This document shows positions 25,157 through 35,411 of a stretch of DNA of 35,411 nt, in pieces (position 1 is the stretch's first letter; each line of letters starts with the position of its first letter). The DNA comes from a virus. Lineage: Duplodnaviria > Heunggongvirae > Uroviricota > Caudoviricetes. A program made the position numbers and the translations under genes. Where the stretch lies: positions 1 through 35,411 of IMG/VR virus record IMGVR_UViG_2654587746_000006; one strand, given 5' to 3'. The notes beneath the pieces are model-generated. The model did not search any database. It was given only the letters and a program-made list of their open reading frames with translations, and was not told where the DNA came from.

Positions 25157-26914
25157 TTATACTTTGCACCTCTTTGAATAATCTGCAATAATTTCCTCAA
25201 TACCATCAAAAATAACTTTAAACTTTTCAAAACTAATTGTTTTACAATTTGCCTTTATAACCTTTGTTGAAAACACATGCTTACCATATTCTGTTTTTGT
25301 ATCCGTATCATTAGATTTATTAAATGTCTTTCCATCAAGCACCGTTGATAGTACCGTGCTATCAAATAAATCCTCCATACAAGACTCTTTCCCTCCAGGA
25401 AGCAATGGTGTTAATAACAAATAGAGATTGTCAAATATGTGGGTATACCTTGCCTTACGAATAGTATCAACATCATTTGGACAATTTTTTACTTTATCCT
25501 TTAAGTGATTTAATAAATCTTTAGGGCCTGAGTCATTATCAAGAAGCATAATAACAGGGTGCTTTGGTTTAAATTTCTCGAACCTCTTTTTTTGTTCTTG
25601 GTATCTTAATATAAATCTTTTGAAGTCTGTAGCACCGCCAGAAATGTCAAGAAAATAGCTTGTTTTTTCAGTTGCTTTAAAAAAATTAACACGATACTCA
25701 TTTTTAGAGCTATCATCAGAAGAATTAAACAATAAAGGATATGAATTCGCCAATGACTTCAAAGCACACTTTAAATATACACGGTCTGTTTTACCCTCAG
25801 TGAGTATTGTTGGCATTTCCATTCCATGAAAATTTTTATAGTATAGAAAATAACTGTAGGCTTTTTCTCTCGAATTCAATTTTGCAGTGTAGTTTAATCC
25901 ATGATTTACACTTTGGTACTTTTCCAACTGTCTTGCGTTCTTTAGTTTTAAATTATTATATTTATCTATTGAGTCAATAAATCCAAAACGGCCTTCTAAT
26001 TTAGCACATGTACCTTTTTCAATCTTTCCTGATTCAGTAACAATAACAAAAGAACCATCTTTATAAAGAGAATGAGCCATGGCACGCGTTACTTTTGCAT
26101 ATTCTTTGCCAACATTCACTTTTTTATTAACAGTCAACCCAGTAACATCTTGTCGTGATGTTTTATAACAAACCCTTGTCTTTTTATCATTTATTTTAAA
26201 GCCAGCCTTTATAATCTCTTTAATTAAAGTTGGACTTAGGGTTACAGACTCTCCGCCAACATCAGCAATCTCTTTTGGAAATGTTTTTTTATTAGTTGAA
26301 AATGTAAGATCATCAGCATACCGTGAATAATTGCATCCGTATTTCTTTGCTAACTTTGATAATCTTATATCAAGAATTCCACTGATTAAGTTACTTATAA
26401 TTGGAGAGCATGGGCTTCCTTGAGGAAGTCCATTCTGAAAACATGCAATTTGTGCGATCGTTGTAGCAACAGTATTATTTAATCTAAAATCTCTGTTTGA
26501 TAAGAAAAAACCTCTAACACGTCCAAAATTAAAACTATCAAAATAATCCTCAAGGTCTATATTTAGTAGTAGCGTTTTACCTCTATGCCGTTCAGCATTC
26601 GTAATAATTGACTTTTCTTTTTCAAACCCATGAGATAAAACTGGATTAATATTATATTTTTTATAAATTTCCGCACGACATAAATATAAAACATCAGCTA
26701 ATCTACGTTGAATATCTTTGAGCTTAGTGGTAGGTGCTGATATGACTCTCGGCGCTCCGTTTTTTTTAGGGATAGTAAATTGTGTATACTGCGTTTCAGC
26801 TTTTAAACGATAAATAACATCCGTAAGAAAAGCAGTTTTAAGATTCAAGATACTAGCCAAATCTTGCCTGTTAGCAGCGTTTTGTAAACGTTCTAAAATT
26901 GATAGGGGTGCCAT
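25157..26914 (-). CDS. ret: Retron-type reverse transcriptase with C-terminal TOPRIM-like domain
   Basis: 585 aa; RT motifs NAERH (NAxxH), LLNIDLEDYFDS, QGSPCSP, YADD, VTG; C-terminal ~220 aa with TOPRIM-like Glu (ILTEGKTD) and DxD (LLDNDSG); AT-rich; preceded by msr/msd-like region. Confidence 0.9.
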   Translation of the reverse strand: MAPLSILERLQNAANRQDLASILNLKTAFLTDVIYRLKAETQYTQFTIPKKNGAPRVISAPTTKLKDIQRRLADVLYLCRAEIYKKYNINPVLSHGFEKEKSIITNAERHRGKTLLLNIDLEDYFDSFNFGRVRGFFLSNRDFRLNNTVATTIAQIACFQNGLPQGSPCSPIISNLISGILDIRLSKLAKKYGCNYSRYADDLTFSTNKKTFPKEIADVGGESVTLSPTLIKEIIKAGFKINDKKTRVCYKTSRQDVTGLTVNKKVNVGKEYAKVTRAMAHSLYKDGSFVIVTESGKIEKGTCAKLEGRFGFIDSIDKYNNLKLKNARQLEKYQSVNHGLNYTAKLNSREKAYSYFLYYKNFHGMEMPTILTEGKTDRVYLKCALKSLANSYPLLFNSSDDSSKNEYRVNFFKATEKTSYFLDISGGATDFKRFILRYQEQKKRFEKFKPKHPVIMLLDNDSGPKDLLNHLKDKVKNCPNDVDTIRKARYTHIFDNLYLLLTPLLPGGKESCMEDLFDSTVLSTVLDGKTFNKSNDTDTKTEYGKHVFSTKVIKANCKTISFEKFKVIFDGIEEIIADYSKRCKV

Positions 26915-27816: not shown

Positions 27817-27857
27817 CTTTCCTCCTATGACACCACAAGAAATACTGTATACATAAC

Positions 27858-27877
27858 CACTGTTTATAATTACAGTA
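27858..27877 (-). promoter_or_regulatory. LexA (SOS) box overlapping a sigma70-like promoter
   Basis: CTGT-ttataatt-ACAG (27860-27875) fits CTGT-N8-ACAG; minus strand shows TTTACA - 17 nt - TACTGT -35/-10 candidates overlapping the box. Confidence 0.6.
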
Positions 27878-33067: not shown

Positions 33068-33289
33068 CTAATTAAGGTTTAGATTGCATTCTGAAAGCGC
33101 ATCAACGGTCATTGCTGCTATGTTGATCATCACTTTTTCGCGTTTTTTATCTTTGCGCAGACGGTGACGGATAAGGCGTCCATCAGCCAACATGTCATTG
33201 ATGGTATCGATGGATAGCCCTGTCAGCTCGCTATAGCGTTCAATAGTCACATGAGGCGTGGTAAGAGTGATTGAAATGTTAGGTCTCAT
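33068..33289 (-). CDS. apl: Apl/Cox-like excisionase and lytic-promoter regulator
   Basis: 73-aa basic HTH-like ORF, first gene of the lytic operon, divergent from cI. Confidence 0.65.
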
Positions 33290-33414
33290 GATGCAACATT
33301 CCTCGTTTAATGATGATTAATCAGGACGAATACGGATCGTTTGTATTTTGTGAACACCATAAACATACGATCGCGCAGTGAAATCGTCAAGATAAAAGTT
33401 CACTTGGAGTGACC

Positions 33415-33984
33415 ATGAATTTGGAGAAAGGCGGACGAGGCGCTATAGAGCGCATGGTAGAAGCTTATGGATTCAAGACTCGACAGGCGTTGTGCGATCA
33501 TTTAGGAATCTCTAAAAGTACACTCGCCACACGCTACATGCGTGACTCATTCCCAGCAGAATGGGTAATCCAGTGCGCCCTTGAAACAGGCACCTCGCTT
33601 AATTGGCTCACAACCGGGCATGGTTCAAAGCAAACTTCAGGTAATACAAATACTATGGAAGTTGCTAAATATGTATTATCTGATGGGGCCTTGTGTGAAG
33701 ACGGTTTTTATATTTTCGATAGAGAATTTCTACCGTCGGCATTCAAGAATCTTTTTGTAATCACAGATAATAATTCTGAATTTATTTGTGATAAGGAATT
33801 TGATGATATACGTGATGGTAAATGGGTAATAAGTATTGATGGCGAAATAACGATCCGTGACATTACTCGTTTACCCGGTGGAAGAATCTTCGTCGAGGGT
33901 GGAAACAGAGCCTTCGAATGCAAGATAGAAGACATTGAAATAATTGGTAAAATTATAAGTTTAACAGTCAAGTATGTTAAATAG
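33415..33984 (+). CDS. cI: Immunity repressor CI (186 type, no S24 peptidase domain)
   Basis: ~189 aa from ATG (MNLEKGGRGAIERMVEAYGF...ALETG..LNWLTTGHG); no Ser-Lys autoprotease motif seen; divergent from apl-like gene. Confidence 0.85.
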   Translation: MNLEKGGRGAIERMVEAYGFKTRQALCDHLGISKSTLATRYMRDSFPAEWVIQCALETGTSLNWLTTGHGSKQTSGNTNTMEVAKYVLSDGALCEDGFYIFDREFLPSAFKNLFVITDNNSEFICDKEFDDIRDGKWVISIDGEITIRDITRLPGGRIFVEGGNRAFECKIEDIEIIGKIISLTVKYVK

Positions 33985-33999
33985 TACCGGGAGGAAATT

Positions 34000-34191
34000 A
34001 TGCTTGGTAAGGTATTTTTTGTGGTTTTGTCATGTTCTTTGTTATTAAACCCACTAGCTACCTATGCTAGAAATTATCCCTGCTCAGGGAAAAAGGGAGG
34101 TGTTTCTCACTGTACCTCTGATGGCAAATTCGTTTGCAATGATGGAACTATTAGTAAATCCAAAAAAATCTGTACTAAAAACTCACGATAA
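34000..34191 (+). CDS. Small secreted Cys-rich protein (cargo between cI and int)
   Basis: 63 aa with GGGAGG RBS; signal peptide [23 protein letters not shown] then ~40-aa mature part with 4 Cys; AT-rich. Confidence 0.55.
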
Positions 34192-34379
34192 CTTTTGCTT
34201 TTATATCTGCGCCTAAAATAAAAATGAGCCACAGGTTAACCGCAAAAGTTACATGCTCACATAGCAAAAAGAATAGCCTACTTCATTATGGCTTCAGTGA
34301 GATGTATGGTCGCAGGATTTCATACATTGACACTGGTTATACATACAGTAAAAATGCTCTCTATTGGAGGGCATTTTTT

Positions 34380-35411
34380 ATGGCTGTACGAAAACTCACC
34401 ACAGGAAAATGGCTTTGCGAATGTTACCCCGCCGGACGTAGTGGGCGTCGTGTGCGTAAACAATTCGCCACCAAAGGCGAAGCACTGGCTTTTGAGCGTC
34501 ACACGATGGAAGAAACCGAAGCAAAGCCCTGGCTGGGTGAATCAGTGGATCGTCGAACACTGAAAGACGTGGTTGAGCTATGGTTCAAACTACATGGTAA
34601 ATCACTGACTGCTGGGCAGCATGTCTATGACAAATTGCTGCTGATGGTTGACGCTCTGGGCAATCCCCTTGCAACTGATCTCACATCTAAAATGTTTGCC
34701 CACTATCGAGATAAACGCCTGACAGGTGAGATCTACTTCAGCGAGAAATGGAAGAAAGGAGCAAGCCCGGTCACCATTAACCTGGAGCAAAGCTATCTAA
34801 GTAGTGTTTTTAGCGAACTATCCCGCCTGGGCGAATGGTCGTATCCGAACCCACTGGAGAACATGCGAAAATTCACCATCGCAGAAAAAGAGATGGCATG
34901 GCTTACCCATGAGCAGATTGTTGAATTGCTGGCTGATTGCAAACGTCAGGACCCAATTCTGGCACTGGTAGTTAAGATATGCTTAAGCACAGGCGCACGT
35001 TGGCGTGAAGCCGTAAATCTTACCCGCTCACAGGTGACCAAATACCGAATTACCTTTGTAAGAACGAAGGGGAAGAAAAACAGAAGCATCCCTATCAGTA
35101 AAGAGCTTTACGAAGAGATCATGGCGCTTGATGGGTTCAATTTCTTTACAGACTGCTATTTTCAATTTTTATCCGTGATGGAAAAAACGTCTATCGTGCT
35201 CCCTCGCGGTCAACTGACACACGTTCTGCGCCATACGTTTGCGGCGCACTTCATGATGTCGGGTGGAAATATCCTGGCCTTACAAAAAATTCTCGGGCAT
35301 CACGATATAAAAATGACTATGCGTTACGCACATCTGGCACCGGATCACCTGGAAACTGCATTACGGTTTAATCCGCTGGCAACACTACCAACATCAATAG
35401 CAAGTTTTTGA
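34380..35411 (+). CDS. int: Tyrosine integrase (P2/186 family)
   Basis: ~343 aa from Met MAVRKLTTGKWLCECYP... with GGAGG RBS; catalytic signatures TGARWREA, HVLRHTFAAH, MRYAHLAPDH; stop codon is the last 3 bases of the window. Confidence 0.9.
   Translation: MAVRKLTTGKWLCECYPAGRSGRRVRKQFATKGEALAFERHTMEETEAKPWLGESVDRRTLKDVVELWFKLHGKSLTAGQHVYDKLLLMVDALGNPLATDLTSKMFAHYRDKRLTGEIYFSEKWKKGASPVTINLEQSYLSSVFSELSRLGEWSYPNPLENMRKFTIAEKEMAWLTHEQIVELLADCKRQDPILALVVKICLSTGARWREAVNLTRSQVTKYRITFVRTKGKKNRSIPISKELYEEIMALDGFNFFTDCYFQFLSVMEKTSIVLPRGQLTHVLRHTFAAHFMMSGGNILALQKILGHHDIKMTMRYAHLAPDHLETALRFNPLATLPTSIASF

Follow-up and report, generated by a model that had tools for sequence, protein, structure and literature searches.

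A conserved YdcA-family gene between cI and int of a P2/186-like prophage encodes a predicted periplasmic mini-protein

Between the immunity repressor gene and the integrase gene of a P2/186-like prophage lies a 63-aa ORF (34000..34191, + strand) which, judged by its conservation, is a genuine coding gene and more than a chance reading frame. Positions given here are those of the window, by which we mean the whole 35,411-nucleotide stretch of viral DNA that was analyzed. The ORF encodes a full-length member of the YdcA family, with a predicted signal peptide and a short, cationic mature domain that bears four cysteines. The gene is a catalogued and annotated member of that family, and its sequence is not new. 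Our analysis brings together the repressor-linked placement of the gene, its link to Dis2, a subunit of a T4SS, and the occurrence of its relatives in T6SS clusters and in secreted nucleases. We tentatively read the gene as cargo of the lysogenic operon whose product may dock close to the outer membrane.

Coding region and translation signals

A first-pass annotation, made from the sequence of the window, had placed a 63-aa ORF at 34000..34191 on the + strand, and we recovered the same coordinates and the same translation. The cI gene ends with the stop codon TAG at 33982-33984, which leaves a gap of 15 nt before the ATG of the ydcA-like gene; the ATG thus begins at the 16th nucleotide, in agreement with the claim that the ORF starts 16 nt past the cI stop. 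The strong GGGAGG ribosome binding site described for the ORF is also present, as a Shine-Dalgarno sequence read off at 33989-33994 (+), 5 nt 5' of the ATG. The ORF had been called AT-rich, and the GC content is indeed 0.35-0.37 across 33600-34400, compared with 0.45-0.52 in the flanks. This low-GC zone includes the C-terminal half of cI, however, and because that half is equally AT-rich, the low-GC block corresponds to the cI-ORF module and not to the ORF alone.

Conservation and selection

A second E. coli allele of the ORF, from APEC O78, is 93% identical to that of the window at the nucleotide level. The two differ at 13 nucleotides. Of the codon changes, 11 are synonymous and 2 replace the amino acid, both conservatively (A20T and R24K), and no amino-acid change falls in the 36-aa core. 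For the same pair of alleles, dN/dS is 0.044 for the ORF, comparable to the value of 0.086 for the neighboring cI gene. When the ORF was compared with the copies in Yersinia prophages, 13-17 of the 15-18 differences in an 81-nt core were at third codon positions; dS is saturated in this comparison and dN is 0.03. By these measures of substitution, the ORF is under strong purifying selection.

The alignments show a freely variable signal peptide followed by a nearly invariant mature domain. Invariant or near-invariant residues in alignments of 35, 24 and 149 sequences are the four cysteines, K32, G33/34, F44, G49, S52 and S54. The core motif can be written as PCS-x2-KGG-x3-C ... F-[VI]-C-x-[DN]-G-x2-S-x-S-[KR]-x2-C, and all of its positions are present in the window protein.

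Membership and spread of the YdcA family

The first-pass annotation implied that the protein was an orphan, which proved not to be the case. It is a full-length, above-threshold match to the NCBIfam model NF007463 (PRK10040.1-2, 'YdcA family protein'), scoring 114.6 bits against a cut-off of 93, with residues 5-63 aligned to profile positions 1-58 of 58. It also matches PHROG 6000 (E 3.1e-34), and PF27300 is among the precomputed domains of the window protein and its relatives. RefSeq already holds the identical protein, WP_001513672.1, under the name 'YdcA family protein'; in a RefSeq prophage next to rcdA/ybjJ, the gene for this protein lies between ORFs annotated as 'phage repressor protein CI' and 'phage integrase'. 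The profile search for small families that had been suggested for the ORF gave a confident match, to YdcA. This bears on the refuting case named in the first-pass annotation, a match of that kind to a housekeeping small protein; the YdcA family, however, has no known function. No YdcA member has a demonstrated molecular function, and our literature search found no paper that describes the family.

Two sister models, NF007462 and NF007464, gave weaker matches that were below threshold. The first of these, which we take to be the model of the E. coli K-12 YdcA type, covers 57 positions and scored the window protein at 68.5 against a cut-off of 118. On these profile scores, the window protein belongs to a subfamily paralogous to the NF007462 type.

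The gene is common in E. coli, and strain HS (NC_009800) is one natural lysogen. The block cI-ORF-int was found in 730 of 5,426 complete genomes of this species, and the segment encoding the mature part, which falls into two allele groups, in 648 complete genomes (~12%). An exhaustive profile search (E<=1e-3) recovered 461 clusters at 50% identity, most of them of proteins of 55-130 aa. Other labels for the protein were considered and rejected. In a copy of Pfam that predates PF27300 the sole hit was PF22906 (E 0.076), which is sub-threshold and spurious; the UniRef name 'Conjugal transfer protein', attached to the identical protein, has no support in the cI-int context; and the 'ydcA' of the gonococcal genetic island is apparently a positional name, for which homology is not established.

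Predicted signal peptide and mature domain

Residues 1-23 (34000..34068, +) form a predicted Sec-type signal peptide. Manual analysis of the n, h and c regions identified an n-region MLGK, an h-region with a mean Kyte-Doolittle value of 2.86, and a c-region NPLATYA in which T at -3 and A at -1 satisfy the -3/-1 rule. A small-x-A site occupies the same alignment column in all homologues, though the signal-peptide sequence itself varies. The earlier proposal of a signal peptide ending in TYA agrees both with this layout and with the aligned site in the homologues.

The predicted mature part, residues 24-63, is encoded together with the stop codon by 34069..34191 (+) and constitutes the YdcA-family domain recognized by NF007463, PHROG 6000 and PF27300. 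As the first-pass annotation had it, this part is about 40 residues long and contains four cysteines: we count 40 aa (4.29 kDa, pI 9.7, charge +6.8), with cysteines at 28, 38, 46 and 58. A fifth cysteine, C12, lies inside the signal peptide and is unconserved. The cationic character is kept throughout the family, with a mean charge of +3.1 over 131 domains versus +6.8 in the window protein. AlphaFold2, run with an alignment of 35 sequences, predicted a small beta-hairpin domain with a pLDDT of ~90 for residues 31-60.

The cI-int interval

The cI gene of the window (33415..33984, +, with the start assigned by PGAP) encodes an immunity repressor of the 186 type (Pfam Phage_CI_repr, 2.8e-33; Phage_CI_C, 2.7e-27) that is 33% identical to 186 CI and 32% identical to HP2 CI. 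Divergent from it is an Apl/Cox-like gene (33068..33289, -), taken from the ORF list, whose presumed function derives from its position only. A putative pR/pL switch region, from which the lysogenic transcript would start, occupies 33290-33414. In the identical prophage in RefSeq the layout is cII - hypothetical - cI, and the layout of 186 is analogous. Downstream of the ORF, int (34380..35411, +, start also per PGAP) encodes a tyrosine integrase of the P2/186 type (Pfam Int_N, 3e-32; Phage_integrase, 6.8e-22) that is 55% identical to 186 Int.

It had been claimed that the ORF has no counterpart between these genes in 186 or P2, and both comparisons bear this out. The cI and int genes abut in 186, while in P2 the C and int genes are separated by 115 nt that contain no gene. 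Klebsiella phage 4LV2017 is the closest sequenced phage, with structural genes ~95% identical to those of the window. Its cI-int slot holds a gene for an unrelated 349-aa hypothetical protein (1851-2900), which argues that the repressor-int interval is a variable cargo site. Homology of the window to the Klebsiella-phage int module begins at ~34320, and the cI-ydcA mosaic module ends on the right with a non-coding spacer (34192..34326, +). A megablast search of ~50,700 phage records found none with the cI-ydcA module, and only the int module was matched. Taken on sequence composition and these alignments, cI and the ORF are one exchangeable low-GC module.

A scan for + strand intrinsic terminators between cI, the ORF and int found none. 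The annotated lysogenic operon of 186 is pL-cI-int-orf69, and by analogy with it co-transcription of the ORF with cI is plausible, given the 15-nt gap and the lack of a + strand terminator. The mini-protein is probably expressed in the lysogen. Immediately downstream, a hairpin with a 10-bp stem, UAACUUUUGC...GCAAAAGUUA, extends over 34191-34253 (+) from the last base of the ORF stop codon; it has no U-tract and its folding energy corresponds to a z score of -2.7. No RNA family was identified by Rfam in 33200-34500. On the opposite strand, a near-consensus sigma-70 promoter-like site, TTAACA-17-TATAAT (33980-33952, -; 11/12 matches), lies at the 3' end of cI and is directed antisense into that gene. 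This site may be a chance product of AT-rich DNA.

Just 5' of int, a promoter scan identified the promoter-like site TTGACA-17-AAAAAT (34327-34355, +). Overlapping it is a LexA-box-like element of the form CTG-N10-CAG, cACTGGTTATACATACAGTa, at 34331-34350. The LexA-box-like pattern occurs 5 times in the window versus 0.06 matches expected by chance. We infer LexA binding from the sequence of these sites, and the arrangement suggests that int could be expressed in an SOS-inducible manner independently of the cI transcript, unlike in 186. A LexA-box-like element, tACTGTTTTTATATACAGTa, is conserved at the equivalent place in Yersinia prophages. Elsewhere in the window, two adjacent LexA-box-like sites (27844-27876) lie upstream of a small minus-strand gene that starts at ~27829 and has the RBS GGAGGA; the LexA-controlled promoter of the 186 tum (p95) antirepressor resembles this arrangement. 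The window also carries, at 25157..26914 (-), a gene for a 585-aa retron reverse transcriptase-Toprim fusion (PADLOC RT-Toprim type I-C, E 3.5e-223). The gene occupies the known P2 cargo hotspot, with a portal-like gene on one side and a replication gene on the other.

Genomic contexts of homologues

We surveyed the contexts of YdcA-like genes at 80 loci, taking one genome per species. At 14 of the 80, the YdcA-like gene lies directly downstream of a prophage repressor gene, on the same strand. The repressor is of the 186 CI type in Escherichia, Yersinia (3 loci), Buttiauxella, Haemophilus and one mis-binned MAG, and of the S24/HTH_3 type in Thorsellia, Iodobacter, Comamonas (3 loci), Hydrogenophilales and Aquabacterium. 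Several of the loci with an S24/HTH_3 repressor have P2 gpD nearby. That YdcA genes occur behind two unrelated families of repressors points to selection for expression during lysogeny.

A further 19 of the 80 loci, in enterobacterial species, lie inside T6SS clusters with TssE/F/G/J and ImpA_N-VasL. The YdcA-family proteins encoded in these clusters are longer and can bear a VasL-type periplasmic domain. Within the clusters, the YdcA-family gene is often followed by one for a membrane/coiled-coil protein with a T5orf172/MUG113 domain. The other 47 loci have heterogeneous neighbors, and no neighbor common to them was found. Similarly, the proteins encoded downstream of the YdcA-like gene in HP2, two small plasmids and a Moraxella phage have no Pfam family in common. 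This lack of a conserved partner gene suggests that the protein stands alone and is not part of a two-gene system.

Protein-level searches identified homologues in phages of Moraxella, Acinetobacter, Pseudomonas and Haemophilus. The homologue in Haemophilus phage HP2 (and S2) carries no annotation. It comes right after cI, whose stop codon its ATG overlaps, and in HP2 it is followed by orf1(S), which has a tRNA_anti-like domain, and then by int. In the Moraxella and Acinetobacter phages homologues are found within tail modules. Two Moraxellaceae plasmids, from Acinetobacter pittii (3.9 kb, typed mobilisable) and Psychrobacter (5.4 kb, typed non-mobilisable), carry a YdcA-like gene beside mob/TraD, and in both the YdcA-like gene is followed by one for an uncharacterised protein of 243-319 aa.

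Some family members have additional domains, which among 149 representatives are mostly Endonuclease_NS (3), SNase (1) and PLDc_2 (1); in others the YdcA domain itself is repeated in tandem. The YdcA domain is found as the N-terminal module, after the signal peptide, of three unrelated families of secreted nucleases. A contig of 3,057 bp assigned to a 'Bacillota bacterium' MAG (JAEWTL010000113.1) has an E. coli-type cI-ydcA-int arrangement and encodes a YdcA-like protein 98% identical to that of the window. The contig probably comes from an enterobacterium, through mis-binning or contamination.

Similarity to Dis2

A sequence profile search of the PDB gave as its top hit chain AN of 7MUC/7MUD, which is Dis2 (Lpg0823), with an E value of 3.7e-5. 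Dis2 was also the top PDB hit of Foldseek (probability 0.93, 38% identity over 39 columns, E 0.14). A comparison with hhalign gave an E value of 8e-5. When the signal peptide is left out, the similarity to Dis2 is marginal (E 0.18). A fragment of a Legionella Dis2 orthologue contains PF27300. As far as profile and predicted-structure comparisons can tell, Dis2 is the only credible PDB neighbor of the window protein and its only structurally characterised relative. A Foldseek search against the viral structures of BFVD returned nothing below E 1. Matches to plant proteinase inhibitors and to LDL-receptor repeats were rejected as non-significant; they reflect cysteine spacing.

Dis2 is a disulfide-pinned subunit of the Legionella Dot/Icm T4SS, located near the outer membrane (PMC8486379). 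It shares with the window protein the motif C-x-K-x-GG-x3-C ... VCN(D/N)G-x-x-S. It is exported by a signal peptide, stabilized by disulfides, periplasmic and close to the outer membrane, and the same features are predicted for the window protein. There are also clear differences. Dis2 has two tandem lobes and five disulfides and lacks the basic SKSKK tail, whereas in the window protein there is a single lobe, with four cysteines. Moreover, Dis2 is a stoichiometric part of its T4SS, present in 13 copies, whereas no T4SS genes were found in the window, a P2/186-like prophage.

Possible function of the mini-protein

We propose, at a likelihood that falls a little short of even, that the ydcA-like gene is cargo of the lysogenic operon and that its product is a small envelope-docking module which acts next to the outer membrane in lysogenic conversion or an exclusion-type function. 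The gene would be transcribed together with cI in lysogens. Its product would be exported by the Sec pathway, cleaved after A23 (TYA) and oxidized to form two disulfides, yielding a periplasmic peptide of 4.3 kDa and a charge of about +7; no dedicated partner gene would be required. The peptide would then bind an anionic component or a protein complex beside the outer membrane, as Dis2 does in the Dot/Icm cap, and this docking would alter the passage of envelope-crossing machines or of incoming DNA through the envelope of the lysogen. A binding role in the periplasm is suggested because the relatives of the protein are a T4SS cap subunit, proteins of T6SS clusters and N-terminal appendages of exported nucleases. 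Exclusion, envelope signaling and a toxin or inhibitor were the roles put forward in the first-pass annotation; our findings speak for a site of action in the envelope and hardly for a toxin. A protective or exclusion role is one that we infer. PADLOC (E<=0.01) assigned no family to the ORF, to the cargo protein of 4LV2017 or to HP2 orf1(S). A bolder formulation, which we think improbable, is that the YdcA/Dis2 domain is a hitherto unrecognised module of the periplasm, which captures incoming DNA or else docks onto or blocks machines that deliver DNA or protein across the envelope (contractile phage tails, T4SS, T6SS). The mini-protein would then be a one-gene factor for exclusion of superinfection or of DNA entry, repeatedly placed behind repressors by P2-like prophages of several proteobacterial classes.

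Another reading, likewise on the unlikely side, is that the cationic, Lys/Ser/Gly-rich domain binds DNA in the periplasm or at the cell surface. Made from the prophage, it would hinder the entry of DNA from phages, plasmids or transformation; in the fusion proteins, it would tether nucleases to their substrate. The commonest extra domains of the family, seen among the 149 representatives, do belong to three unrelated families of secreted nucleases. The gene downstream at T6SS loci often encodes T5orf172/MUG113, which is nuclease-like, and the next gene in HP2 has a tRNA_anti-like domain, which is an OB fold. The invariant lysine of KGG, the SKSKK motif and the net charge of +6.8 would also suit DNA binding, and family members are often found in genera with natural competence (Haemophilus, Neisseria, Moraxella and Acinetobacter). 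Nuclease fusions, however, make up just 5 of the 149 representatives, and a module for retention at the envelope explains them equally well. Furthermore, the T6SS context has no obvious link to DNA, the domain has no similarity to known DNA-binding folds, and Dis2 resides in an outer-membrane protein complex with no described contact to DNA (PMC8486379). The gene could instead serve the fitness of the host and not phage defense, as a moron that confers tolerance of envelope, acid or organic-acid stress in the manner of chromosomal ydcA. Deletion of ydcA in E. coli W causes sensitivity to 300 mM 3-hydroxypropionate, and ydcA is up-regulated at pH 5 under YdcI (cited in PMC7642389). In addition, much of the family is encoded on chromosomes, away from mobile elements. 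The deletion phenotype, however, comes from a single study, in which it was suppressed by deletion of yieP (PMC7642389). The window protein is also below the NF007462 cut-off and belongs to a different NCBIfam equivalog, and the repeated capture of such genes behind repressors, on small mobilisable plasmids and in tail modules indicates a role in mobile elements. We consider a host-fitness function about as unlikely as the binding of nucleic acids.

The remaining alternatives have less in their favor. The protein might be secreted as a toxin, an antimicrobial peptide or an inhibitor of enzymes, for example a defensin-like cationic peptide or an inhibitor of a protease or lysozyme, and a mature product that is small, cationic and disulfide-rich would be consistent with this. 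Two further observations would accord with it: plant proteinase inhibitors of the potato-II type are weak matches in profile searches (E 0.09-6), and YdcA-like genes are present on very small plasmids beside a membrane protein, as in bacteriocin-immunity pairs. The inhibitor matches are nevertheless non-significant and driven by cysteine spacing, a Sec signal in a Gram-negative cell leads to the periplasm only, and there is no conserved immunity or export partner. Moreover, Dis2 uses the domain as a structural module, and in enzymes it is appended at the N-terminus. We regard a toxin or inhibitor as very unlikely. Least credible of all, to the point of being nearly negligible, is that the protein is a lipoprotein lipidated at Cys12, or that the ORF is untranslated. 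The sequence VVLSC does resemble a lipobox at -4 to +1, and the UniRef entry of one Yersinia homologue is named 'Lipoprotein'. We rejected lipidation, however, as VVLSC ends at residue 12, too near the N-terminus and after Lys4, and most homologues lack Cys12 and have an A-x-A-type site at residues 21-23. Against an untranslated ORF stand the dN/dS of 0.044 and the conservation seen in different genera.

About one complete E. coli genome in eight carries the gene, which is also found in P2-like prophages belonging to several genera. An anonymous 'hypothetical protein' becomes with this analysis a defined and cheap experimental target, consisting of one gene and a 40-residue peptide. Should the peptide turn out to be a factor for exclusion or an adaptor in the envelope, a role would be suggested for Dis2 and for chromosomal ydcA as well; if not, it would be one more small conserved cargo gene of prophages.

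Comparison with known systems

The window protein resembles other members of the YdcA family in size and in its organization, a signal peptide followed by one 36-aa domain of the form PCSG-KGG-C...FVC-DG-S-S-K-C with four cysteines. It differs in that the window copy is prophage-borne and lies in the cI operon. Closest in arrangement are the genes of HP2/S2 and of the P2-like (Peduoviridae) prophages of Yersinia, Buttiauxella and betaproteobacteria, which belong to the same family and occupy the same strand and the same post-repressor slot, although identities do not exceed 50-70%. The HP2 gene begins within the cI stop codon, and another cargo gene, orf1(S), comes before int; the betaproteobacterial copies follow an S24/HTH_3 repressor and not a 186-type CI.

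Cargo genes that are linked to the repressor and expressed in the lysogen include lambda rexAB and 186 orf69, and superinfection exclusion by periplasmic or envelope proteins is exemplified by P1 Sim, T4 Sp, T5 Llp and phi80 Cor. Although these proteins have no similarity in sequence or fold to the window protein, the ydcA-like gene would resemble them as a non-essential gene in the repressor transcript, made in the lysogen, whose product is predicted to be located in the envelope.
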